Notes under the pieces: generated by a model
The model's input: only the letters and a program-made list of their open reading frames with translations
The model's database searches: none
Told to the model about the DNA's origin: nothing
Made by a program: the position numbers and the translations under genes
Part shown: positions 21,565 through 51,158 of the stretch, piece by piece
How the letters are laid out: each line of letters starts with the position of its first letter
How positions within the stretch are numbered: position 1 is the first letter of the stretch
DNA from: Dehalococcoidia bacterium
Lineage (GTDB): Bacteria; Chloroflexota; Dehalococcoidia; Bin125
Direction: 5' to 3'
Length of the DNA stretch: 64,000 bases
Assembly: GCA_965221065.1 (NCBI GenBank)
Contig: OZ244861.1
Coordinates: 1,613,844-1,677,843, forward strand

Positions 21565-24500
21565 TTACCGGCGAGCCGCGGACAACTGCCGACGCACCAA
21601 CCTCGAATACAACCCATCCTCCGACGCCAGTTCCTCGTGCGTCCCAATCTCCACCACCCGACCCTCGTCCAGCACGACAATCTGATCCGCGTCTCGCACC
21701 GTTGACAGCCGGTGCGCGATCACCAGCGTCGTTCGATCCGACATCAGCTCGTCCAGCGCATCTCGCACCAGGCGCTCGTTCAGGCCGTCGAGATGCGATG
21801 TCGCCTCATCCAGGATCAGCACCGGAGCATCCTTGAGCAGCGCTCGCCCGATCGCGACCCGCTGACGCTGCCCGCCCGAGAGCTGCGCGCCCCGCTCTCC
21901 GACCGGCGTGTCGAGGCCGTCCGGCAGCGACTCGACGAAGTCCGACAGCCCGGCCCGCTCGATCGCCAGCCGCAGTTCGTCCTCGGTCGCATCGGGCTTC
22001 GCCACCTGCAGGTTGGCCCGAATCGAAGCGTTGAACAGGTACGTGTCCTGCGCCACAAGCGCTACCTGCCCGCGCAGCTCATCGAGCCGATACGTGCGCA
22101 GATCCGAGTCCTCCAGCGTGATCTTCCCGTCCTGCGGATCCCAGAAGCGCAGCAGCAGATGAGCCGCCGTCGTCTTGCCCGCGCCAGACGGGCCGACCAG
22201 CGCCACTGTGCCGCCCGGCTTGAGGTCGAACGACACCTCGTCCAGCGCCGCCCGGGGCGTGTCTTCATAGGTGAACCCGACCGACGCGAACGCGCCCTCC
22301 GACACGCCAACCCCGTCCCCCGCCTGACCGTTTGTCGACGCTCCCGGACCATCCAGCACCGCCACCGGTTCGCTATGAACAGCCGTCAACCGCCTGGTCG
22401 CGCCCAGCGTGTCGCCCAGCCGTCGACCGACCTGCGCCAGCTCCGCGACAGGCATGAACGCCCCCATCGCCAGCAACGTCAACAGCGGCGCCAGCGCCGA
22501 GTCGATATCGCCGCGCACCGCGAGCACCCCACCGATCGTCAGCACAGCCAGACCGCCGTAGCCGGTCAGACCCTCCAACAGCGTTCGTTGCGCCGAGATC
22601 TGGCGGTTGAACCCACCCCGGATCGGCATGTATTCGCGCATCAATCCCTCGAACTCTGTCTTCCGCTCCGGTTCGCGCTGGAATGCCGTCACCTCGCGCA
22701 GACCCTGCAGCGTGTCGACCATGTGCGCGTTGAGCGCGCCCAGGTGGTCGCGCGATCGCGAGCCCAGTCGATCCACGATCCGCCGTGTAAACAGCGGGCT
22801 CAGCCCGGCGAGGATCAGCAGCGGCGCCAGCCCGATGCCCAGTCGCCAGTCCACGACGAACAGCGTGATCAGCGCCGCGCCCGGAATCACCACGCTGACG
22901 AACGCGTTCGCGATCGTGTGCGCGAAGAAGTACTCCACCGTCTCCACGTCCTGTGTCGCCATCGAGACGAGGTCGCCCGAACGGCGTCGCAACAGGTACG
23001 CGGGAGCGATCTGATCGAGCTTGCGGAACAGCGCAATCCGCATATCCGCCAGCAACCGGAACGCCATGTCGTGCGAGACCCAGTTCTCGAGGAAGCGGAA
23101 CAGACCGGTCAACACCGCAACCACGATCAGCAACACCGCGAGCAGCGTGATCGATTCGCCGTCCCGCACATTGGCGACCATGAACGCGCCGATCACCCCA
23201 ACCGCAATCGCACCGAAGAAGTGCGCCACCCCGGTCCCGAACGACAGGCTGGTCTTGAACCAGTACGGCGCAGCCATCGCCAGCAGCCGCGCCGAAGTCT
23301 CCCGCCAACCCATCCCCTCCGCCCGGATGATCGCCTCCGTCGCCCCGCCCCCGTAGTCCCGCATCGCCAGCGAACCACTCGCCCCCACCGCCGCACGTTC
23401 CGCCGCCGCCCGTTCCGCCGGCGGAGCATCGTCGACGAACCCGTCGAGGCTCGGGTCGGTCATCTGACCCTGCATCAGCCAGTCGTAGACCCCGCCCTCC
23501 CGCAGCAACGTCTCGTGGTCGCCGCGCTCGACCAGCCGACCCTCATCCAGCACCAGGATCTCGTCGCAGTCGCGCACGCTGGACAGCCGGTGCGCCATGA
23601 TCAGCGTCGTCCGACCCTGCATCAACCGATCCAGCGCCCCCTGGATCGTCGCCTCGTTCTCCGCGTCGACGCTCGACAGCGCCTCATCGAGGATCAGCAT
23701 CGGCGCATCGCGCAGCAACGCCCGAGCAATCGCGATCCGCTGACGCTCGCCGCCCGACAACCGGTGTCCCCGCTCGCCGATCACCGTCCCGTAGCCCTCC
23801 GGCAACGAGTTGATGAACTCGTGCGCGTTCGCCGCTTCCGCCGCCGCGCGGATCTCGTCCTCCGTCGCGTCGGGCTTGGCGAACCGCAGGTTGGCCAGCA
23901 CCGATCCGTGGAACAGATACGTGTCCTGCAAGACGACCGCCATCTGCGAGCGGATGTCGGCGAAGCGCAGCTCGTTGACATCGCGCCCGCCCAGCCGGAT
24001 CGTCCCCTCCTGCGGCGTGTACAGACGCTGCAGCAACCACACGAGCGTCGACTTGCCCGACCCCGAGCGCCCAACCACGCCGATCCGCTTGCCCGGCTCG
24101 ACAGTGAAGCTGACATCGTTCAACGCCGCTCGACGCCCGGTCGGGTAGCTGAACGTCACGTGCTCAAACTCAATCCGCGGCTCGACTACCACTGCCGGCG
24201 CCGCCTCCGCGTCCGGCGTCAGCGGCTGCGCCTGCTCGATATCCAGCACGCTCTGCGTCGCCGCCACGCCCAGCAGTCCCTGGTGGAAGAGCTGGCTCAA
24301 TTCGCGCAGCGGACGGAACACCTCTACCCCGAGCATCAGCACCACCAGCAACTCCGCCAGCTCCATCGCCCCCGCCTCGACCCGCAGCGCGCCGACATAC
24401 AGCGCCACCGCCGCCCCCACCGTGATCGCCAGGATCGTCAGACCCTGCGCGATCGCGTTGTGGAACAGCACGCCCATCGTGGTGCGGAACACCACCTGCG

Positions 24501-39090: not shown

Positions 39091-40031
39091 CGCTCGGCCT
39101 CTTCATCTCCGGCATCGGCTTCGTGAGCCGGGGTGATCACAATCCGGCCGTCCCTCGAATCGACGTAGGCGCGCCGGCCCAGGGCAACCTGGTCGAGCAG
39201 CGGTTTGGGAATCTGCAAACGTCCGGCCCCGTCGACCACGGCGAATTCCTCGTGCACGACCTCGGCGATCTCCGTGCCCGGGTTCTCCACCCGCCGCACC
39301 GTCTCGGTCGCAATCGTGCCGTCGCGAATCGCCACGACGCGGTCGACGCGCGCCGCGATCGCCGGATCGTGGGTGACGATGATGATCGTCAGCCCGAACT
39401 GATTCGAGAGACTGCGGAACAGGTGGAAAATCTCCTCCGAGGTATGCGTGTCCAACTCGCCGGTCGGTTCATCGGCCAGCAGTAGCGGCGGATCGTTGGC
39501 CAGGGCAACGCCGATCGACACGCGCTGCTGCTCCCCGCCCGAGAGCTGGTCCGGGCGCTGCTTGCGTTTGTCCAGCAGTTGCACCGCCTGCAGCAACTGC
39601 ATCGCCCGCTCCCGCGCGTGCTTGCGCGAACGCCCCGCGAGGATCATCGGCACTTCAATGTTCTGCTGCGCGTTGAGGTACGGGATCAGGTTGCGGCCCG
39701 TCTGCTGCCAGACGAATCCGACCTCTTCGCGCCGGTAGTCGACCAGCTCCTGTTCAGTCAGGGCGAGCAGGTCGGCCTTGTTCACGTACGCCTGACCGGC
39801 CGAGGGCACGTCGAGCCCGGCAAGCACGTTGAGCAGCGTCGACTTGCCCGATCCGGACGCGCCGACGATCGCCAGCACCTCGCCCCGCCCGACGGTCAGA
39901 TCGAGCCCGCGCAGCGCCACCACCTCAAGGTCGGCAATCTTGTAGATCTTGAACAGGTCCCTGCAAATGACGTGCTGCTCCGCCAACATCTCGTCCGGAC
40001 GAATCGGCGGAACCGCCGCATTGGTCGTCAT
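39087..40031 (-). CDS. ABC transporter ATP-binding protein (MacB/LolD-type) with C-terminal AbrB/SpoVT-like segment
   Basis: GASGSGKSTL, LSGGEQQRVSIGVAL; C-terminal GRLQIPKPLLDQVALGRRAYV...RIVITP. Confidence 0.8.
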   Translation of the reverse strand: MTTNAAVPPIRPDEMLAEQHVICRDLFKIYKIADLEVVALRGLDLTVGRGEVLAIVGASGSGKSTLLNVLAGLDVPSAGQAYVNKADLLALTEQELVDYRREEVGFVWQQTGRNLIPYLNAQQNIEVPMILAGRSRKHARERAMQLLQAVQLLDKRKQRPDQLSGGEQQRVSIGVALANDPPLLLADEPTGELDTHTSEEIFHLFRSLSNQFGLTIIIVTHDPAIAARVDRVVAIRDGTIATETVRRVENPGTEIAEVVHEEFAVVDGAGRLQIPKPLLDQVALGRRAYVDSRDGRIVITPAHEADAGDEEAER

Positions 40032-40140
40032 CGGTTACCTCAACCTGTCGCGGAAACTCGGAACCGTCGAAAGCACAACATGAGCAGGATACCCCCACAA
40101 CCCACCTACCGGCGATGCAACGTCCGAGCCCTGGTTCCCC

Positions 40141-40278
40141 TCTCCCCCCGCCGTCAGGTGGGGGGAGATGCCGAAGGCAGAGGGGGGCTCCCTTCCGCTC
40201 CCCCCGTTCCGGCCCCCTCTCCCCGAGGGAGAAGCCTGCCCCGCACTTGATGCGGGGGGCTGGGGTGAGGGCCCGCCT
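40141..40278. repeat. cluster of GC hairpin repeat elements (nested CCCTCTCC...GGGTGAGGG element carrying a ccccgcacttgatgcgggg hairpin)
   Basis: Direct comparison with the elements at 2061, 31966, 63040 and the hairpins at 42949/48831. Confidence 0.55.
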
Positions 40279-40361
40279 CAGCCTTCGCCGGGACGGCATA
40301 CACCGGCACCTCCACAGCCTCGCTATCCTGAGATCCCGAGCTTGGCTTGAGGAGACCGCCG

Positions 40362-40631
40362 ATGACCGCGCGCCGTCCCGCCGAGGAGATCGCCCGCCTC
40401 GGCGACCGCATCTACGAGCGCGACATCCGCGCGCAGGTTGAGGACGTCCACGACGGAGCGTTCGTCGCCATCGATGTCGAAAGCGGGAACTGGACCCTCG
40501 CCGAGAACGAGCTTGACGCAATGGTGCGCCTGCGCGAGCGTCAGCCGGACGCGCTCAATGTCTGGCTACTGAGGATCGGCTACCGCGCGATCGCCAGCAT
40601 CGGCGGCGGCGCCCTCCGGGCCCGCAGGTGA
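40362..40631 (+). CDS. small protein partner of retropepsin-like protease (DUF5678-like?)
   Basis: ATG 40362 after GAGGAG; 4-bp overlap (GTGA) with the next gene. Confidence 0.5.
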   Translation: MTARRPAEEIARLGDRIYERDIRAQVEDVHDGAFVAIDVESGNWTLAENELDAMVRLRERQPDALNVWLLRIGYRAIASIGGGALRARR

Positions 40632-40996
40632 TCGAAGGCTCGGTCAACGCAAGCCTCGAGTCGGTCGTCGCGCTCGACTTGCGCGGCCCGACAGGTCAGG
40701 CCCGCTACGTGGATGCCGTAGTGGACACTGGTTTCAGCCGCTTTCTGACGCTGCCGCCGTCGGTAGTGCGGGAGTTGGGACTGCCCTTTGCCGGTGCGCG
40801 CCTGGTGATTCTCGCCGACGGTAGCGAAGTGGCGCTCGAGGCATACGCTGCGACGGTCCTCTGGGATGGTCGGCCGAGGGAGATCGTCGCCTACGCGGCC
40901 GACACGACGCCCCTGATCGGGATGTCCATGCTTGAGGGGCACAGCCTGTACGTGGAAGTCGAAGACGGCGGACACGTCGCTATCGAGGCTCGCTGA
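40628..40996 (+). CDS. retropepsin-like (clan AA) aspartic protease
   Basis: VVDTGFS catalytic motif; 122 aa single-lobe size. Confidence 0.7.
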   Translation: MIEGSVNASLESVVALDLRGPTGQARYVDAVVDTGFSRFLTLPPSVVRELGLPFAGARLVILADGSEVALEAYAATVLWDGRPREIVAYAADTTPLIGMSMLEGHSLYVEVEDGGHVAIEAR

Positions 40997-41028
40997 CGCT
41001 GGCCCGTCTGTGCCCCTCGCGGGAACCC

Positions 41029-42450
41029 TCACCGACCCGGCCAGTGCGCCATCTTGCCTCTCGGTGCATGCGCGATCCGAACCCATTGCAGCTTCGTGGA
41101 GCGCGGCGTCTGCTGCAGCAGTTCGTGCATGTAGCGGTCCGCGTCGAGCAGGTCGTCATTGCGCTTGCGCGGCTTCGGGTCGGGGTCGTCTTCGCGCTGC
41201 TCCCAGACGTACTCGCTCATCCGCAGCGGGAACTGCGTGAGCTCGGGCACGTAGAACGACGCGGGCGGGTCCGACGCAACACGCTCGTGGACGAGGTTGA
41301 TCCCGTAGAGCACCGAGCCGGGACCACCCGCGGCGGGCTCGATGTCGATGCCCTGGCGGCGCTGGTGGTCGATCCAGGCCGATTGCGAGCGATCCGCGGC
41401 CCAGCGGATCGGTCCGAAGCGCTGCCGGCAGTGGCGCTGCCACTGCTCGAGCCGCTGGATGACGCCGGGTCCGCGATCCTCGAACTCGGCCACGCGGATC
41501 AGGGTGTAGGGGTGCGTGCCGGCGAGGCCCGCCACGATTCCCGCGCTGTAGTGGGCCGTATCGGTCTGGCCGCCGAAGTCGAGCCCGCCGATGTAGCGCC
41601 CGAACTCCGGTAGCGGCCGCTCCCAGCGCTGGCGGTCCGGATCGAAGTCGGGGTAGACGCGGCCCATCAACGCGTCGAAGCGGCCCTCGATGAAGCGCTC
41701 GCGCCAGCGCGGCGGCATCAACGCGTGGTTCAGCTCGGCGTAGTTCTCTGGCAGATGCGGGTTGTCCTCAATCCGGGCGCGGATGAAGCTGACCTGTCCC
41801 CGCGCGTCGCGCAGCACGTCCTCGGGCAACTCGCGCCGCACGAACCAGCGCTGGAACCAGCCCGGCCAGGGGTTCGAGGCGGCCACGAACCAGCGCTGCG
41901 GTTGGGCCGGATGGCGCAGACGCGTGAGCAGCATCAACGCCGCTTCCTCCTCCACCTGTCCGGCCTCGTCGATCAGCACCGATCCGTACTCCTGCGAGCC
42001 CAGACCCTGCCAGTCGGAGAGGTGGCGGAAGTTGACGGTCGAGGTCCGGTCCGCGGGCCAGGTGGGCAGCCGCAGCTGGACCAGGCTGGTCGGGGCCTGC
42101 TGGCGGCGCGCGATCAGATCCGGCGGGCAGACGTGGAATAACTCCTTCATGGTGGTCGAGGAGAGGTCGGAGAGATGGTGTCGGGCGACGAGCACGTTGT
42201 TGCCGGGGTAGGCGCAGGCGGCGTCGATCGCGAGCTCGGCAATGGCGCGCGTCTTGCCGCCGCCCATTGCGCCGCCGTAGCCGAGCAGGCACAAGCCCGG
42301 GCTGGGCGCCTCCGTGAGGGCGCTATAGAGCTCGCGTTGGCGCGAGGTGGGAAAAAAACCGCGGTCGTCGTGGAGGGGATGCCCCCCTCTGCCTGCGGCA
42401 TCTCCCCCCGCCCCGGGCGGGGGGAGCGGGGCATGGGGATTAGGGGACAT
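41029..42450 (-). CDS. terL: phage terminase large subunit (TerL)
   Basis: F.PT.RQRELY...GYGGAMGGGKT Walker A, VLIDEAG Walker B, C-terminal RNase-H-like nuclease (GGLDFGGQTDTAH); AAGAGG RBS. Confidence 0.8.
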   Translation of the reverse strand: MSPNPHAPLPPPGAGGDAAGRGGHPLHDDRGFFPTSRQRELYSALTEAPSPGLCLLGYGGAMGGGKTRAIAELAIDAACAYPGNNVLVARHHLSDLSSTTMKELFHVCPPDLIARRQQAPTSLVQLRLPTWPADRTSTVNFRHLSDWQGLGSQEYGSVLIDEAGQVEEEAALMLLTRLRHPAQPQRWFVAASNPWPGWFQRWFVRRELPEDVLRDARGQVSFIRARIEDNPHLPENYAELNHALMPPRWRERFIEGRFDALMGRVYPDFDPDRQRWERPLPEFGRYIGGLDFGGQTDTAHYSAGIVAGLAGTHPYTLIRVAEFEDRGPGVIQRLEQWQRHCRQRFGPIRWAADRSQSAWIDHQRRQGIDIEPAAGGPGSVLYGINLVHERVASDPPASFYVPELTQFPLRMSEYVWEQREDDPDPKPRKRNDDLLDADRYMHELLQQTPRSTKLQWVRIAHAPRGKMAHWPGR

Positions 42451-42829
42451 CGTCATCCTCTTGCCTGGCGGCCTCCTCGTCGTCTGCTTCGGAGTCCTCC
42501 TGGGTGGCGTACATGGAGAAGTCGGTCAGGTCGACCCCGTCGGCGAGGGCCTGCGCGAGCGGACCCAACGGCTCCCGCTGCGACTGCATGTCGCGCTCGG
42601 CGCGCTGGGCGAGTTCCTGGGCCAATTGGCTGGCCAGTTGTTTGGCCAGTTGGGTGCCGAGTTCGAACAGGCCGTTGACGCGGGCCATCATGCCCAGGGC
42701 CTTGATGCGAACGTGCGACGGTCCGTTGGCGGCTTCGTGGGCGATGCCGGCTTTGATCGCGGCGTCGGTGTAGGGAACGGGCGGTTTGAGTTGGTTGGTG
42801 GCGGCGTTGATGGCGGTCATGGCGGTCAT
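42440..42829 (-). CDS. hypothetical protein, possible terminase small subunit
   Basis: 129 aa, coiled-coil middle, acidic tail; GAGAGGA RBS; 11-nt overlap with terL start. Confidence 0.35.
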   Translation of the reverse strand: MTAMTAINAATNQLKPPVPYTDAAIKAGIAHEAANGPSHVRIKALGMMARVNGLFELGTQLAKQLASQLAQELAQRAERDMQSQREPLGPLAQALADGVDLTDFSMYATQEDSEADDEEAARQEDDDVP

Positions 42830-42934
42830 GGTTGGCGGTCCTCTCGGGAATGGCGGGCGATCGAGTGTATGCGCACTGGTGTTCTATGTGGGGAATCGTT
42901 GTGTGGTGTGGTTGACGGATGGCGGTGGGGCGAC

Positions 42935-43460
42935 GGTGGGAGTCTGGGCCCCGCATCAAGTGCGGGGCATCGGGAGGGGCGAGCGGGGCGTCGGAGGGGC
43001 GTGCGGGGCGTCGGAGGGGGAGGGTGGGGGGCCTCGGGAGGGGAGGGTGCGGGGCATCGGGAGACGAAGGTGTGGGGCGTCGGGAGGGGGAGGGTGGGGG
43101 GCGCTGATTCGATCCTCCGCGCTTGACGCGGGGGCCAGAACGGCTGCTGGGCGTGGAGGTTGGTGGTCGGTAGAGGGTCTACTGGGATGGCTGCGTTGGG
43201 GGAGGCGTTCGGGTTGGGGGCGAGGGTGGAGGTCTGGGCCCCGCATCAAGTGCGGGGCATCGGAAGAGGAGGGTGCGGGGCGTCGGAGGGAGGTGCGGGG
43301 CGTCGGGAGAGGCGTGAGAAGGGGGAGTGGATGGGGGGCGCTGATTCGATCCCCCGCGCTTGACGCGGGGGCCAGAACGGTCGCTGGGCGTGGAGGTTGG
43401 TGGTCGGTAGAGGGTCTACTGGGAGGGCTGAGTTGGAGGAGGCGTTCGGGTTGGGGCCGA
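42935..43460. repeat. two tandem about 230-280-bp direct repeats, each with a CCCCGCATCAAGTGCGGGG hairpin, an about 21-bp minisatellite (gcggggcgtcgggaggggagggt) and a CCCCCGCGCTTGACGCGGGGG hairpin
   Basis: Copy 1 is about 42935-43214, copy 2 about 43215-43458, about 90% identical; minisatellite copy number differs between copies. Confidence 0.7.
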
Positions 43461-43474
43461 CGTATACTTTTTCC

Positions 43475-43774
43475 ATGTCTCGGTCCGAGACTCAGCCTGC
43501 GGTGTACATCCTTGCGAGCCAGCGGAATGGGACTCTGTATGTGGGCCATACGGCGGACCTTGTTCGACGGGTGACGGAGCATCGGGAGGGTCGCGGGGCG
43601 CGCTTTACGTCCGAGTATTTTGTGCGCCGGCTGGTCTGGTACGAGTTCCACGACAGTCTCGACGATGCGCAGCGTCGTGAGAGTCTTGTGAAGCGCTGGA
43701 AGCGGAAGTGGAAGCTTGAGCTGATTGAGTCGCATAATCCTGGGTGGCGGGATCTGTATCACGAGTTGGCTTAA
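43475..43774 (+). CDS. GIY-YIG nuclease family protein (COG2827/UPF0213)
   Basis: VYILASQRNGTLYVGHTADLVRRVTEH; about 58% GC; AT-rich tatacttttt just upstream. Confidence 0.75.
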   Translation: MSRSETQPAVYILASQRNGTLYVGHTADLVRRVTEHREGRGARFTSEYFVRRLVWYEFHDSLDDAQRRESLVKRWKRKWKLELIESHNPGWRDLYHELA

Positions 43775-43776
43775 GT

Positions 43777-44012
43777 GAATTCGATGCCCCGCGCTTGAAG
43801 CGGGGGCTATGGGTGGCTGGCGGATCTGGTGGGAGGGCTGAGTTGGGGACGGCGCTTGGGTTTGGGGGCGAGGGTGGCGGTCTGGGCCCCGCATCAAGTG
43901 CGGGGCATCGGAACGGGAGGGTGCGGGGGCAGCGGAGGGGAGAGTGCGGGCGTTGGAAGGGGCGTGCGGGGCGTTGGAAGGGGCGTGCGGGGCGGGAGGG
44001 GAGGATGGGGGG
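43777..44012. repeat. third (rearranged/partial) copy of the 42935-43460 repeat unit
   Basis: ttcgatgccccgcgcttgaagcggggg...ggtctgggccccgcatcaagtgcgggg plus minisatellite units. Confidence 0.6.
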
Positions 44013-44585
44013 TTAGACCGGCCCGATGCAGTCCGCGATGTTCTCGATGAACTCGATCGGCGAGCACTTGTCGAACCACTGGCCGGTGTGCAGGGTGTAC
44101 TCGTGGAAGATCTTGAGCGCGCCCAGGAAGAGCAGCCAGCGCACGGCCTCAGCCCCTCGGAGCGGCGCGGGCGTCCCGTCCTCCGCCTCGGCCCAACCCG
44201 GTCTCAACCGCGCCGGCCAGTGCGGCCGCGCGGCGACGAACAGGAACCAGAACTCGAACACGTGCGGGAAGTAGATCAGGATGCCCCGACCGGCGCCGGC
44301 CGTGAACGCGATGAAGCCGATCAGTCGCCAGGCGAACAGCCCCAGCGCCACCCGCCGCTCCCAGCCGCCCCAGCGCAGCGCGACGATCAGGAAGAGCCAG
44401 ATGTACACCTGGTCGACCCACTTGTCCCACTCCTGGTAGTTCGACAGTCCGCCCAGGTCGATGGCCTGGCGCAGGAACAGGTCCGAAAGGTCGATGAAGA
44501 CCGCGATCAGCCCGCCGACGAACGCCCAGCGCAAGACTGGCAAGGATCCGGCCACGCGGATCAGGGCGATAACCAGGGCTTCCAT
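44013..44585 (-). CDS. hypothetical integral membrane protein
   Basis: 190 aa, about 5 hydrophobic segments. Confidence 0.5.
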   Translation of the reverse strand: MEALVIALIRVAGSLPVLRWAFVGGLIAVFIDLSDLFLRQAIDLGGLSNYQEWDKWVDQVYIWLFLIVALRWGGWERRVALGLFAWRLIGFIAFTAGAGRGILIYFPHVFEFWFLFVAARPHWPARLRPGWAEAEDGTPAPLRGAEAVRWLLFLGALKIFHEYTLHTGQWFDKCSPIEFIENIADCIGPV

Positions 44586-44621
44586 GGGAGAAGACTAGGT
44601 CGCGCGGACCGCGAGGGCGCG

Positions 44622-45311
44622 CTAGTCGGCGCCGTTGTCGATCCCGTGCTGCCGCTCGAAGCGGCCGGTGACCTGGAAGATCGTGCGCTCGCAGATGTTC
44701 AGCGCGCGATCGCCAATCCGCTCGAGGTTGTGCGAGCACCAGAGCACGTGCGTGATCGCGTCCGACTCCTCGGGGTTGCCCTCCGCGCCCGCCAGCCGCG
44801 TGATCAGCCGTTCGTGGATGTCGCTGTACAGCTCGTCGACCTCGTCGTCCTGCCCGATCGTCAGTCGGGCGAGACGCTGATCGCGTTCGAGGAATGACCG
44901 TGTGGCCGACTGCAACATCTCGCGAACGACGTCGGCCATGCGCCAGAGGTCCGGTTCGGTCGCGGCGACCGGGTTGTCCTCGAGGAAGATCGCGTTGCGG
45001 GCGATGCCCTCCGCGTGCCCGGCGATGCGTTCCAGGTTGAGCGTGATCGCGACCACCGACAACAGCTCGCGCAGGTCGCCGGCGACGGGCTGCTGCAGCG
45101 CGATGATCGTGGTGACCGCCTCTTCGATCGCGTAGCGCACCTGCTTGGCTTCCTCGTCCGCCTCGCAGACTCGGCGGGCGAGCACGAGGTCGCGGCGCAG
45201 CAGGGCCTGCATCGCGTCGACGATCGAGCGGTCGGCGCGCGCGTGCTGGAGGCGCAGGCGGTCGAGGATGTCGGCCCGATCCGAGGAGTACGTCAGCCGT
45301 ACGGTTGACAT
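44622..45311 (-). CDS. phoU: phosphate signalling complex protein PhoU
   Basis: Two PhoU repeats; adjacent to pstB. Confidence 0.85.
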   Translation of the reverse strand: MSTVRLTYSSDRADILDRLRLQHARADRSIVDAMQALLRRDLVLARRVCEADEEAKQVRYAIEEAVTTIIALQQPVAGDLRELLSVVAITLNLERIAGHAEGIARNAIFLEDNPVAATEPDLWRMADVVREMLQSATRSFLERDQRLARLTIGQDDEVDELYSDIHERLITRLAGAEGNPEESDAITHVLWCSHNLERIGDRALNICERTIFQVTGRFERQHGIDNGAD

Positions 45312-45359
45312 CTCGTCCTCGCAGTCCGGGGAAGTCTGGAACCCGCCATCTCCGGCAGG

Positions 45360-46310
45360 TTAGCCGTACCTCCCCGTAATGTAGTCTTCCGTCCGCTGGT
45401 CGAGCGGGTTGGTGAAAATCTCCTGCGTCGGCCCGAACTCGACCAGGCGCCCCACGCGCTCCTCGCCCGCGAGCAGGAACGCGGTGTAGTCCGAGACGCG
45501 GCCGGCCTGCTGCATGTTGTGGGTCACGACGACGATCGTGTAGTGCTCGGCCAGCTCGCGCATCAGGTCTTCGATCTTGAGCGTCGCGACCGGATCCAGC
45601 GCGGAGGCGGGCTCATCCATCAGGATGATCTCGGGCTGGACGGCGATCGCCCGGGCGATGCAGAGTCGCTGCTGCTGACCGCCGGACAGGGCCAGACCGG
45701 ACTTGTCGAGCTCGTCCTTGACCTCGTCCCACAGCGCGGCCCGGCGCAGGGCGTCCTCGACGAGCCGGTCCATGTCGCCGGAGTAGCCGTTGATCCGAGC
45801 GCCGAACGCGACGTTCTCGTAGATCGACTTGGGGAACGGGTTGGGCTTCTGAAAGACCATGCCGATCCGGCGTCGCACCTCGACCGCGTCGATGTTGGGG
45901 TCGAGCAGGTTGCGGCCCTCGAACTCGATCTCGCCTTCCATGCGCGCGCCGGGGATCAGGTCGTTCATGCGGTTGAAGCAGCGCAGCAGCGTCGACTTGC
46001 CGCAGCCCGAGGGACCGATCAGCGCAGTGACCCGGTTCTGCGGGATCGGCATCGTCATCCGGTCGATGGCCTGGAATGTGCCGTAGAAGGCCGAGACGTT
46101 GCGCAGTTGCAGCGCCATGTCGACCGCTTCGGTGAACTCGTGGCGGACGGCTTCGAGGTTGGGGTCGAGATGGACGCCGACGCCGACGCCGTCGGCAGCG
46201 TCCTGCTTCATGTTGGGCGGCGGCGGGGGCGCCGTCGCGCGATCGGGCTCCGCGGCCGCCGTAGCGCCGGGTGCGCTGGACCACATCAGGGTGAAGAAGT
46301 TGCGTGCCAT
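45360..46310 (-). CDS. pstB: phosphate ABC transporter ATP-binding protein PstB (with low-complexity N-terminal extension)
   Basis: GPSGCGKST...[14 protein letters not shown]...[10 protein letters not shown]; AGGGAG RBS at 46310. Confidence 0.85.
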
Positions 46311-46341
46311 CTGCGGCTCCCTCTGCCTGCGTTCAGAGTAT

Positions 46342-47712
46342 CTACCAATCGGTGCGGGTTCGCTGTCGCATGATGATCGCGGCCGCGTTCATCAGCAGCA
46401 GGATGACCATCAACACGATGATCGCCGAGGCGGCGATCTCGTGGAATCCTGACTGCGGTCGGGCGACCCAGTTGAAGATCTGGATTGGGAGGACGGTGAA
46501 GTCGTCGGTGGGGGAGTCGGCGAGGAAGGCGATGAAGGTGAGCGCGCCGATCGCGATCAGCGGCGCGGTCTCGCCGATCGCGCGGGACATGGCGAGGATG
46601 TTGCCGGTCAGCATGCCGCCGAAGGCGTAGGGCAGGACGTGGAATCGAATCACCTGCCAGCGGGTCGCGCCGACTGCGTAGGCGGCCTCGCGCATCGAGG
46701 GCGGCACCGTGCGCAACGCCTCCTGGGCGGAGACGATGATGATCGGCATGACCAGCAGCGCCATCGTGCAGGCCCCGGCGAGCACGGAGCGCTCGAACTC
46801 GAGCACGCGCACGAAAACCTGCAGGCCGAGCAAGCCGTAGATGATCGAAGGGACGCCGGCGAGGTTCGAGATGTTGACCTGGATCATGCGCGAGAACCAG
46901 TTGCGCCGCGCGTACTCCTCGAGGTAGATCGCCGCGCCGACTCCGAGGGGGAAGGCGACGGCAGCGGTGATCACCATCATGTAGAGCGTGCCGGTGACGG
47001 CCGAGAAGATGCCCGCCTCCGCCGGCTTACGGGATGGGAAGGAAGAGAGGAACCAGGGGTCCATGAACAGGTAGACGACCCAGCCGGCGATCATGATCGC
47101 GGGGATGATCAAGCTGGGCCTGCGCATCCGGTGAGACCAGAACCAGCCGGCGGCGAAGATCGCCAGCGGCACGAGGATGCCGGCCAGCAGCAGTCGCACG
47201 ATCTGGAACCCGGACGCCTCGCCAAGAACCTGGAAGATGTTGCCGCTTGCCCCGTCAATGCCGACGGCCTTGGCGTACTCGACAAAGTAGGCCGACTCGA
47301 AGCGGACGTAGAGGATGTGAACGAAGATCGCGGCGGGCGCAACGACGATGAAACCCATCGCTCGTTCAGCCAGGCGGGGCAGGCCGGGAACCAGGGCATT
47401 GACCAGGCGCGGACCGACGAAGGGGAACAAGATCGCGACCGGCACGGCCCAGGTCATCCAGCCCATGCCCGCGGGCGTGGGCAGATCGCTGACGATCCCC
47501 CCGCCGCGCGCTTCGCGGCCCACGGCGCCGCCGTCGGTGAACAGGCGCGCCGCGCCGTCCACGGCAATCTCGACGATCAACGCGCCGAGCATGATCATCG
47601 AGATCGCGATCGCCAGCAAGGCCGCGACCATGAAGGCGACCGACACGCTACGACGAATCCGTACGCGCGGAGCGAACGCCGTCAGTTGCGCGGACGGTGC
47701 GGCGGCGCTCAT
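46342..47712 (-). CDS. pstA: phosphate ABC transporter permease PstA
   Basis: Start ATG overlaps the pstC stop (ATGA); the 762-aa ORF's first about 300 aa are out of frame. Confidence 0.8.
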
Positions 47713-48704
47713 TCGTACTCCTCCCGGAAGCGTTGCGAGACCCACTGCGCGACGATGTTCATCGCCAGGGTGAGCACGAACAGGGTCATCGCGACCGCGA
47801 ACAACACCTTGAACTCGATCGATGTCGTCGGCGTGTCGCCCAGCGAGAGCTGGACGATCATCGCGGTCATCGTCTGCACCGCTTCGAGCGGGTTGACCCC
47901 GAACTGCGGGTTGCCGCCGCCGGCGATGGTCACGGCCATCGTCTCGCCGACGGCGCGAGAGGCGGCCAGGATGATCGAGGCGACGACGCCCGAGAACGCA
48001 GCCGGCAAGACGACCCGGAGCGAGACCTCCATCCGCGTCGAACCGAGCGCATAGGCGCCCTCGCGCAGCGAGCGCGGGACGGCTCTCATCGCATCCTCGG
48101 AGAGCGACGCAATGATCGGCACGATCATCAGCCCAACCACGATGCCGGCCGAGAGCGCGTTGTAGATGCCGACATCCTCGCCGAAGATGTCGCGAATCAC
48201 CGGCGAGACCGAGACCAGGGCGAAGTAGCCGAACACCACCGTCGGCACGCCGGCGAGGATCTCGAGGATCGGCTTGATGATCGCGCGAACGCGCGGGGGC
48301 GAATACTCGCTGAGGAAGACGGCCGCCATCAGGCCGAGGGGAATGGCGACGGCCAGCCCGATCAGGGCGATCATGCCGGTGCCCCAGACCAGCGCCCAGA
48401 CGCCGAACTGCTTCTCGGCGAACAGCGCCGACCACTTGGTCGAACCGAAGAAGTCGATGAAGGGGACTTCGCGGAAGAACTCGACCGTCTCGAAGATCAG
48501 CACCAGCACGATGCCGATCGTGACGAACGCGGAGAGCGTCGCCGTCAGGAACAGCGCCCCGTGGATTATGCGTCCGGTCAGCGTCTCGCGACCGCTGCCC
48601 GGCCGCGATGGCTGCAACTTGTCGCGCCACAGCTCCGCCAGCAGGGATCGGACGGTGTCCTGGGGCGGTCCTCCACGCGGATCGCGGGGAGCCTGTGCTG
48701 CCAT
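47709..48704 (-). CDS. pstC: phosphate ABC transporter permease PstC
   Basis: 331 aa, 6 TMs, EAA-like loop. Confidence 0.8.
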
Positions 48705-48830
48705 ATCGGATCTCTTCGCTGATCGGACTGGAGGAGGCTCACAGCGGAGCTTCAGTGCATTGCGGGCAAACTACGAGCGACGAACGCGGCGGCGGTTAAC
48801 ACTGAGTAAGTCGTCCGGCCCTCTGACAAA

Positions 48831-49052
48831 CAGCGCACTTGATGCGAGGCGCTGGCCCCCGTGTCAAGCACGGGGGATCGAACCCGGGGCGCACGGGGGC
48901 TCGAACCCGGGGCGCGGGAAGGGGGACCCGATGCCCCAATGCCCCGCACTTGATGCGGGGTCCAGCCCCCCGTGTCAAGCACGGGGGATCGAAGCCGAGA
49001 GCGGGGGATCGAAGCCGGGCGCGGGGGATCGAGGCTGGGCGCGGGCGAGCCC
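48831..49052. repeat. hairpin/minisatellite repeat of the same family as 42935-44012, opposite orientation, in the pstS-pstC intergenic region
   Basis: ccccgcacttgatgcgggg twice, cccccgtgtcaagcacggggg twice, gggggatcgaagccg tandem three times. Confidence 0.6.
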
Positions 49053-49064
49053 GGCGTGCGGCGC

Positions 49065-51158
49065 CTACCCCGCGCCGGCTCCGAAGATCTCGGCGAGGGT
49101 CGCGCCCTCATGCGCGGCCGCGATGGCGGAACCGGTCACCGTGTTCTGAACCCGCGACAGGACGGCCGCATAGATCGCCTCGGGCAGTTGGACGTACCCA
49201 ACCTCAGGCGTGTCCACCAGCCAGACGCCGTCCGTCAGGAAGTACTCGACGAACGCCGCAACTTCCTCACGCTCCAGCGAAGCCACCGACACGTAGATGA
49301 ACAACGGCCGCGAGAGCGGGTTGTACGAACCATCGTTGATCGTCCCATTTGAGGGCGTCACGGCGCTCCCCGCGTCGTTGATGACCGGAACGGCCCTGAG
49401 CACGTCGGCATTGTTGGCGTAGTAGCTGAAGCCGAAGTAGCCGATCCCGCCGCGGTCATTCGAGACGCCCTGGACGAGCACGTTGTCATCCTCCGAGAAG
49501 GTCGTGTTGTCGGAGCGGTGCACGCCGTTGTCGCCGTTGATCGCCTCGGTGAAGTAGTCGAACGTGCCGCTGTCCGCGCCCGGAGCGTACAGCGCGATCT
49601 CGACATCGGGAAATCCGTCGCGCACGTCGGCCCAGGAGACGGCGTAGTCGTCTGGGCGGAAGATGTGGTTCAGCTCGTCCACCGTCAAGAAGTCGACCCA
49701 GTCGTTGTCCGGATTGATGACGACGGTCAGACCGTCGAACGCCACCGGGACCTCGATGAAGTCGATGCCAGCCGCTTCGCACAACTCGGCCTCTGAGTCC
49801 TTGATCGGACGCGAGGCGTCGGAAATGTCGGTCTCGCCGGCGCAGAAGCGCTTGAAGCCGCCGCCCGTGCCCGAGACGCCGACGGTCACGCGCACGCCGC
49901 GCTCGGTCAGAATGCCGAACTCCTCGGCCATTGCCTCGGTGATCGGGAAGACGGTCGAGGAGCCGTCAACCGCGATCTCACCTTCGAGGCCGGAGAGGTC
50001 CATGACCATCGGCATCGACTCTGCGCCGTAGATTTGCGCCAGTGTCGCGCCCTCGGCCGCGACGGCGATCGCGGAGCCAGTCTCGAGGTTGTGCACGCGC
50101 TCGAGAGCCGCCACGTAGATCTCCTCGGGCAGTTGCACGTAGCCAACCTCCGGCGTGTCCACCAGCCAGGTCCCGTCGGTGAGGAAGTACTCGACAAAGG
50201 CCGCCACCTCCTCGCGCTCGAGCGAGGCGACCGAGACGTAGATGAACAGCGGCCGCGAGAGCGGGTTGTAGGAGCCGTCGTTGATTGTCTCGTTGGAGGG
50301 CGTGATCGCCGTGCCGGCGTCGTTGACGACCGGAACGGCCCTCAGCACATCCGCGTTGTTGGCGTAGTAGCTGAAGCCGAAGTAGCCGATCCCGCCGCGG
50401 TCCGCCGAAACGCCCTGGACGAGTACGTTGTCGTCCTCGGAGAAGGTCGTGTTGTCGGAGCGGTGCACGCCGTTGTCGCCGTTGATTGCCTCGGTGAAGT
50501 AGTCGAACGTGCCGCTGTCCGCGCCCGGCGCGTAGATGGCGATCTCGATGTCGGGGAAGCCGTCGCGCACGTCGGCCCAGGAGACCGCGTAGTCGTCGGG
50601 GCGGAAGATGTGGTTCAGCTCGTCCACCGTCAGGAAGTCGACCCAGTCGTTGTCCGGGTTGATCACCACGGTCAGACCATCGAACGCCACCGGTACCTCG
50701 ATGAAGTCGATGCCGGCTTCGTTGCAAAGCTCGACTTCCGAGTCCTTGATCGGGCGCGAGGCGTCGGAGATGTCGGTCTCGCCGGCGCAGAATCGCTTGA
50801 AGCCGCCGCCGGTGCCGGAGACGCCGACGGTGACGCGGACGCCGCGGTCGGTGAGAATGCCGAACTCTTCGGCCATCGCCTCGGTGATCGGGAACACCGT
50901 GGAGGAACCGTCGACCTGGATCTCGCCCTCGATGTCTTGCAGACGTTCGCGGGTCTCCTGCTCCTGCTGCTGAGTCGGAGCCGCCGTGGCGACAGCCTGC
51001 TGCTGCGCGTCCTGCCGCTGTTGCGCTGGCGCGGTCTCCTGCTGTTGATCCTGCTGAGCTACCGACTGTTGCTGGTCGTCGCCGCCGCAAGCGACGAGCG
51101 CCATGGCTCCCGCCAACAGTGCGACGATCAACAGCGGCAGCCACCGCGTCGTCATCCT
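49065..51158 (-). CDS. pstS: phosphate-binding lipoprotein PstS with two fused, near-identical PBP domains
   Basis: Lipoprotein signal [12 protein letters not shown]; Q-rich linker; two roughly 300-aa PstS domains about 95% identical; alternative TTG start at 51175. Confidence 0.8.

Follow-up and report, generated by a model that had tools for sequence, protein, structure and literature searches.

Ssn proteins (CDD cd10448) are small GIY-YIG nucleases whose genes are flanked by hairpin repeats, termed NTS or SRM, and of which SsnA of Neisseria meningitidis, 94 aa long, is one example (Chenal et al., Nat Commun 2025, PMC11893778). Four purified homologues each bind their own hairpin only as single-stranded DNA, on one strand, and cut just upstream of it, with the C that follows the palindrome being the most crucial base for binding; in Neisseria, the nuclease modulates natural transformation (PMC11893778). 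At least one SRM repeat was reported near 71% of Ssn homologues, and repeats on both sides for 42% (PMC11893778). Here, we describe a locus in a 64,000-nt stretch of a Dehalococcoidia bacterium genome (GenBank assembly GCA_965221065.1, contig OZ244861.1, positions 1,613,844 to 1,677,843, hereafter “the window”), in which a 99-aa GIY-YIG gene stands within an array of hairpins and G-rich minisatellites. The locus is very probably a member of the Ssn/SRM system, its gene lying between copies of the hairpin that the gene product most likely recognizes.

Two other repeat systems invite comparison. CGTC-tagged REPs, including Neisseria dRS3 and Rickettsia RPE-4 and RPE-6, are intergenic, mostly inverted dimers with an unpaired 4-nt tag at one end, an 8–9-bp stem, a 4–5-nt loop, and a CCA tail; they were reported without a dedicated transposase or other enzyme, and a GIY-YIG gene went unnoticed (Di Nocera et al. 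2013, PMC3733652). REPIN-RAYT systems combine dispersed inverted dimers, which fold into long hairpins, with a single-copy nuclease gene that descends mostly vertically and stands between hairpins of the same system; the encoded enzyme is specific for hairpins in single-stranded DNA. These structural features of the two systems recur in or are predicted for the present locus, which nevertheless differs from each in its tag: CGTC (or TGTC/CCTC) with AT at the first two stem pairs in the former and GTAG in the latter, against CGAT with GC here. In REPIN-RAYT systems, furthermore, the enzyme is a Y1 HUH transposase, whereas the present locus encodes a GIY-YIG nuclease and offers no evidence of transposition.

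The protein matches Pfam GIY-YIG (PF01541, E = 6e-16) and no other domain, and the catalytic residues Y11, Y22, R32, H36, E69, and N88 are invariant across 20 homologues (alignment A1). As far as can be judged from its sequence, it probably belongs to the Ssn family: 3397 homologues were found at E ≤ 1e-10, and it shares 47–59% identity (E 1e-33 to 1e-38) with the nine that have flanks fitting the strict N. meningitidis NTS consensus. The published criterion for Ssn homology, E < 1e-10, is set against SsnA itself. Like the described Ssn enzymes, it is a single-domain GIY-YIG protein of about 94–105 aa with the catalytic residues. The initial annotation of this locus had assigned the protein to COG2827, a label that would cover UPF0213/YhbQ/SLX1-type proteins, which form a conserved-domain family separate from Ssn; small proteins of this type (PDB 1zg2 and 1ywl) are detectable at E values of 1e-7 and 4e-6 and are about 30% identical. 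We know of no repeat association for UPF0213/YhbQ/SLX1-type proteins. GIY-YIG homing endonucleases of the I-TevI type share the catalytic domain and a gene of atypical composition, but have a separate DNA-binding domain, cut double-stranded DNA, and reside in introns and phage genomes; the NCBIfam model for group I intron endonucleases scores 19 bits here against a cut-off of 56, and no NCBIfam model gave an informative match.

A single 19-nt hairpin is present six times, in either orientation, between positions 42944 and 44010 of the window, alongside the minisatellites and the gene (Table 1). The sequence CCCCGCATCAAGTGCGGGG, called unit A, occurs exactly at 42949, 43239, and 43887 on the forward strand and at 40239 and 48942 on the reverse strand, and nine sites with up to three mismatches were found across the window where 0.04 would be expected; CCCCGCGCTTGACGCGGGG, called unit B, is exact at 43352; the copies at 43115 and 43787 each deviate by one mismatch, related sites lie at 48857 and 48968, and the search yielded 10 sites against 0.21 expected. 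The array is well above chance. Its unit order (A-B, A-B, gene, B′, A), its coordinates, and the additional copies at 40239 and 48831–49052 had all been given correctly by the initial annotation, which also took A and B for two different hairpins; they are instead the same element read in opposite directions. Only two stem positions distinguish B from the reverse complement of A, and both differences are compensatory (CA/TG, CG/CG, TG/CA). Written in a single orientation, the element consists of a tag (T)CGAT, an 8-bp stem GCCCCGYR, a loop CTTGA, the returning stem YRCGGGGC, and a tail CCAG.

Table 1. Features of the GIY-YIG locus and of related repeats elsewhere in the window (positions count from the first nucleotide of the window)
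Feature	Position	Strand	Basis and remarks
Core hairpin without tag or tail	40239..40257	-	Centre of a larger imperfect palindrome (~40215-40275)
Hairpin unit A1	42944..42972 (core 42949-42967)	-	Exact core match; on the - strand: tag CGAT, 8-bp stem, loop CTTGA, stem, tail CCAG
Minisatellite 1, G-rich, period ~20-23 bp, ~6 copies	42960..43103	+	Tandem Repeats Finder; repeat family D1; unit: half-stem TGCGGGGC, tag (A/G)TCGGA, and ~8 nt
Hairpin unit B1	43110..43138 (core 43115-43133)	+	One mismatch; CGAT-C-CTCCGCGCTTGACGCGGGG-G-CCAG
Spacer of composite dimer B1-A2	43139..43233	+	Repeat families D2 and D3; BLAST; 93% identical to the copy at 43373-43460
Hairpin unit A2	43234..43262 (core 43239-43257)	-	Core match
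Minisatellite 2, half-stem and tag reiterated	43250..43340	+	Tandem Repeats Finder; repeat families
Hairpin unit B2	43347..43375 (core 43352-43370)	+	Exact core match
Truncated-dimer spacer	43376..43460	+	Alignment with L002; the 99 bp that followed (partner A hairpin and a short G-rich stretch) are lost here and kept in 99%-identical L002
AT-rich stretch CCGACGTATACTTTTTCC with TATACT	43461..43474	+	Sequence
ssn-type gene, 99-aa single-domain GIY-YIG nuclease	43475..43774	+	Pfam PF01541, E = 6e-16
Hairpin unit B3	43782..43810 (core 43787-43805)	+	One mismatch, degenerate tail; starts 8 nt past the stop codon
Spacer of dimer B3-A3, partial copy	43811..43881	+	82% identical over 56 nt
Hairpin unit A3	43882..43910 (core 43887-43905)	-	Core match
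Minisatellite 3	43898..44010	+	Exceeds its L002 counterpart by ~74 bp
Second cluster of the same hairpin family	48831..49052	.	Intergenic spacer of the pst phosphate-transport operon; cores at 48831 (degenerate), 48857, 48942, and 48968; half-stem and tag arrays at 48868-48915 and 48982-49045

The stem of the hairpin covaries among 278 copies taken from related genomes. In 264 copies, Watson-Crick pairing holds at both variable positions of the stem, whereas shuffled 3′ halves averaged 94 and never exceeded 118; the stem types are TG/CA, CA/TG, and CG/CG. The flanks are oriented and not palindromic. On one side, the CTGG/CCAG tail, absent from the search pattern, is 83–91% conserved, and a C comes right after the palindrome in 252 copies; on the other, the tag keeps its A in 260 copies, its T in 224, its C in 244, and its G in 244, a conservation partly imposed by the search pattern, as that of the tail is not. 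Oriented flanks and the C after the palindrome fit the functional description of SRMs, whose order of tag, 8-bp stem, 4–5-nt loop, stem, and C(C)AG tail, with lineage-specific variants, is also the order found here. Set beside CGTC-tagged REPs, the 8-bp stem, the 5-nt loop, and the CCA tail agree, and the tag and the base of the stem do not.

The arrangement of repeats around the gene recurs wherever orthologues were examined. These are 67–99% identical to the window protein, and in all of them (the loci numbered L001, L002, L003, L061, L067, L080, L225, L226, L227, and L230), as in the window, the gene lies between two B-spacer-A composites or remnants of them. The neighbourhoods vary: as in the window for L002 (99% identity), syntenic with it for L001 (86%), unrelated for L067 (90%), a short locus with the window genes not nearby for L080 (83%), adjoining genes for DUF885 and DsbA-type thioredoxin proteins in L003, L225, L226, L227, and L230 (~71%), and with a terminase-like gene about 3.8 kb off in L061 (68%). 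Other hairpins, TCCCCGC-N6-GCGGGGA and CCCCGGC-GCAG-GCCGGGG, flank the homologues in L092 (60%) and L228 (67%).

Further afield, homologues of 47–66% identity come from many phyla. Among them, 95 loci (48–66% identity) from metagenomes and viral contigs were examined, and in most an inverted hairpin pair, CGTCATTCC...GGAATCCAG, flanks the gene. On the upstream side, some 10 nt typically separate the hairpin from the start codon; on the downstream side, the hairpin begins 0–5 nt past the stop; a representative form is CGTCAT-TCCGGC-GAAA-GCCGGA-ATCCAG, with stems that are lineage-specific and compensated. Hairpins of this form are the CGTC-tagged REPs, Neisseria dRS3 among them (PMC3733652), and the NTS/SRM repeats of the Ssn system (PMC11893778). 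The published SRM motif lies within 300 bp of the gene in 63% of 93 diverse homologue loci and on both sides in 38%, so that our homologue set reproduces the published flanking rates. Pairing upstream and downstream flanks of different loci failed as a null for the inverted repeats, the flanks sharing one hairpin family across loci.

The association of gene and repeat is therefore real, with all orthologues examined and most distant homologues flanked by hairpins, and it is already published; the description of it as not established for this nuclease family has been overtaken by the 2025 report (PMC11893778). Its rediscovery from raw sequence backs the method of reading, and the finding in itself is ordinary. 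The initial annotation had proposed to judge the association by the flanks of paralogues elsewhere in the genome. This presumed several per genome, whereas among the loci fetched the gene occurs once per assembly, with two tandem copies in L227 only. What is new is the host phylum, Chloroflexota, which the main text of PMC11893778 does not mention; the tag and stem variant; hairpin dimers of about 185 bp; minisatellites of tag and half-stem on the predicted cleavage side; and an intergenic site found in three states. The pairing of Ssn nuclease and hairpin now extends to high-GC, sponge-associated Chloroflexota.

If the enzyme behaves as its characterized relatives do, it would bind the hairpin only on single-stranded DNA, such as arises during replication, transformation, conjugation, or repair. 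The bound strand would read 5′-(T)CGAT / GCCCCGYR / CTTGA / YRCGGGGC / CCAG, predicted single-stranded targets would carry 5′-TTCGATCCCCCGCGCTTGACGCGGGGGCCAG or TGATTCGATCCCCCGCGCTTGACGCGGGGGCCAGAAC, and the cut would fall a few nt 5′ of the tag. Cleavage, and the strand on which it takes place, are most likely as in the tested Neisseria and Wolbachia enzymes (PMC11893778). The change of tag from CGTC to CGAT would reflect co-evolved specificity; should it mean a changed cleavage specificity, the clade offers a new one for single-stranded DNA tools. As to its cellular role, the nuclease may govern single-stranded DNA that enters the cell or recombines, as in Neisseria, or it may serve the spread of the repeats.

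Several observations weigh against placing this locus in the Ssn/SRM system. The published search motif, HGTCWYN(0-2)YYVSBRHN(0-5)WNVSBRGN(0-2)RNCYNB, has no match in the repeat arrays of the window, L001, L002, L003, L061, L067, L080, or L092. The NTS-flanked homologues serve as a proxy for N. meningitidis SsnA and cd10448, and the family placement rests on that proxy; the cleavage model, too, is carried over from enzymes of other clades. Finally, the ssn gene was not seen in the sampled blocks of two repeat-rich related assemblies. The first point has a ready explanation in that the motif demands a GTC(A/T) tag and a stem opening with AT, where these repeats have CGAT and GC. The motif is a search heuristic drawn from 29 genomes and does not define SRMs by function; its one match in the window, at 22171, is unrelated. 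On its sequence, then, the repeat is a variant outside the published search motif, and since such a variant escapes that motif, current repeat censuses probably undercount. Membership in the Ssn/SRM system is otherwise carried by what we observe here: the repeat family and its covariation, oriented flanks, repeat-gene-repeat architecture, dispersal, and array turnover.

Proximity of hairpins to the 3′ end of the gene raises the question of whether they act mainly in RNA, as 3′ stabilizers, terminators, or regulators of the small gene or of neighbouring operons, with the nuclease unrelated. The hairpin begins 8–70 nt past the stop codon in most orthologues, and stabilization of mRNA 3′ ends by REPs is established in enterobacteria (discussed in PMC3733652). 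Yet the hairpins stand on both sides of the gene and in both orientations, no T-run follows them, a terminator scan picked none of them, an Rfam scan of 39800–49400 at E ≤ 1 gave no match, and the tested Ssn enzymes do not bind RNA (PMC11893778). A role chiefly in RNA is accordingly improbable.

In the window, the three G-rich minisatellites (period 20–23 bp) each come after an A-type hairpin; Tandem Repeats Finder reports arrays at 42960–43103 (period 23, 6.4 copies), 43250–43312, and 43898–43994. Their unit is the hairpin's own tag and adjacent half-stem, reiterated. Orphan copies of tag plus half-stem number 69 on the tag side of hairpins, the predicted cleavage side, and 17 on the tail side, and such arrays, which have no counterpart in the published Ssn systems, would have arisen by slippage or repair at the cleavage side. 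Contig L002 opens with a run of about 53 G (positions 1–55). Its assembly probably broke inside a G-rich minisatellite, and arrays of this kind are therefore likely to be under-represented in short-read assemblies.

The repeating composite is B, a spacer of about 105–125 bp, and then A, making up the ~185-bp hairpin dimer. The whole composite folds into a single long hairpin (−35.3 kcal/mol as DNA, z = −3.6), and this tail-to-tail dimer is the commonest arrangement across genomes, with a spacing of 122–128 bp in 33 of 47. Published Ssn genes have single inverted hairpins, whereas whole dimers with a conserved spacer serve here as direct repeats. The spacers have diverged within one family: they align with hardly a gap at about 50% identity, where shuffled controls reach 34%. 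Those that flank ssn have few copies elsewhere by BLAST, and the spacers of dispersed dimers are only distantly related to them. Dimer length is thus kept despite the low identity of the spacers.

A pattern scan of one genome per species, in 8-kb blocks, found the hairpin in at least 115 blocks, nearly all, among the matches listed, in about 19 Dehalococcoidia/Chloroflexota assemblies, several of which carry sponge-style sample names. The window has 10 copies and one assembly at least 74 in 24 sampled blocks, so the initial proposal of a dispersed repeat family holds; in the published Ssn systems, too, the oriented hairpins that enclose the gene are numerous genome-wide. The arrays turn over fast by insertion and deletion. 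Between the window and L002, the neighbouring proteins are identical, yet in the arrays one hairpin is lost through a 99-bp indel, another has a 5-bp deletion, and the minisatellite differs in length by about 74 bp.

Dispersal of this kind could also be the work of a RAYT encoded elsewhere, which would make the repeats ordinary REPs or REPINs and the adjacency of the GIY-YIG gene incidental. The repeats do resemble REPs in their GC-rich hairpins, inverted dimers, and intergenic clusters, and REP hot spots persist at syntenic sites, so that some of the recurrence across genomes is inherited. They lack the GTAG tag, however, and a tblastn search with the E. coli RAYT (a query identical to PDB 4ER8) of about 0.9 Mb of DNA around the hairpins detected no homologue, its single weak match being a solute-binding protein. 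The GIY-YIG gene is moreover flanked by hairpins even where its neighbours are unrelated and in other phyla, each lineage having hairpins of its own. We regard mobilization by a RAYT as very improbable. In L030, L034, L037, L041, L056, and L114, hairpins do enclose ~240-aa proteins that carry a helix-turn-helix at the N terminus, in several copies per assembly; as candidate transposases they were rejected, Pfam giving only helix-turn-helix matches and no transposase domain.

The Ssn/SRM explanation can be extended, without being displaced, by supposing that the hairpin-ssn-hairpin unit is or was an insertion-sequence-like (IS-like) element whose nuclease also drives the copying of gene-less dimers, as RAYT does for REPINs. 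Chenal et al. noted the IS-like repeat-gene-repeat layout and themselves raised domestication of a mobile element as a hypothesis (PMC11893778). Consistent with it here is one intergenic site, between the gene for a 190-aa membrane protein and a small acidic open reading frame (ORF), which is empty in L107, holds hairpin arrays without the gene in L065, and holds arrays with the gene in the window, L001, and L002. The 90% identical orthologue L067 has the same flanks in a different neighbourhood, and homologues about 60% identical occur across phyla. Base composition is atypical: the gene has a GC content of 59% (the initial annotation gave about 58%), with 69% at third codon positions against 89–93% in neighbouring genes. 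The sharp dimer spacing and the excess of orphan tag and half-stem copies on the predicted cleavage side point the same way, as does the report of CGTC-type REPs without a known transposase (PMC3733652).

In L003 (5935–5985), a hairpin (CCCTGGTCAAGCCAGGG followed by gcaggc) sits in the TCAAG loop of another; this may be a loop-targeted insertion and would fit mobility. In L227 (2501–3323), the GIY-YIG gene occurs twice in tandem, each time together with the element that flanks it, an arrangement most simply explained by unequal recombination between flanking direct repeats.

Against an IS-like origin stand the gene itself, mostly single-copy and syntenic in close relatives, and the 99-aa nuclease, for which strand-transfer or ligation activity is not known; neither target-site duplications nor clean junctions of an insertion could be made out, and transposition has been observed for no Ssn. 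Repeat recombination could give the same polymorphisms, as the duplication in L227 illustrates, and recombination together with slippage between repeats can explain most of the mobility-like features. We therefore entertain the mobile element only tentatively. Of the initial suggestion that the nuclease mobilizes or maintains the repeats, the association of gene and repeat stands, and mobilization is conjectural, here as in the literature.

A wider and rather unlikely possibility is that CGTC-type REPs owe their spread to Ssn nucleases, which would then be the enzyme long sought for them and a GIY-YIG parallel to RAYT and REPIN. The three-state site, the nested hairpin, and the cleavage-side minisatellites would then perhaps show the process caught in action in this Chloroflexota lineage. 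How such repeats spread has been a question since CGTC-type REPs were reported without a transposase in 2013 (PMC3733652), and the three-state site and one-sided minisatellites offer concrete ground on which to ask whether the nucleases create their repeats or disperse them.

The locus occupies about 1.1 kb of strongly G-skewed DNA between the small acidic ORF (42440–42829, reverse strand), which follows a terminase-like gene (41029–42456, reverse strand), and the 190-aa membrane-protein ORF (44013–44585, reverse strand), upstream of phoU and the pst phosphate-transport genes. A consensus scan found no sigma-70 promoter upstream of the GIY-YIG gene. TATACT ends 6 nt before the ATG in the window and in L002, where it may be the −10 box of a leaderless mRNA, and TATGCT ends 9–11 nt before the start codon in L001, L067, and L080, a placement that likewise suggests a leaderless transcript.

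The copy of the core hairpin at 40239 has a 3′ flank, caggctt/c, in common with 18 copies in related genomes, and the palindrome around it (40215–40275) is a distinct composite that reuses the core. A second GC-rich hairpin family, CTCCCCCCG...CGGGGGGAG, occurs in the window at 40140–40170 and 42402–42426, and its pattern matched in 19 loci; the copy at 42402 is a pattern match inside the terminase-like ORF, and the looser one at 40140 was seen by eye only. Hairpins also bound a 2.3-kb cassette (40580–42829) made up of a 168-aa ORF (40580–41086), the terminase-large-like gene, and the acidic ORF. The terminase-large-like gene stands alone, other phage genes not being seen next to it; terminase-like genes turn up in 13 of the roughly 115 blocks that carry the hairpin, and one assembly has three copies or more (L020, L064, and L111).

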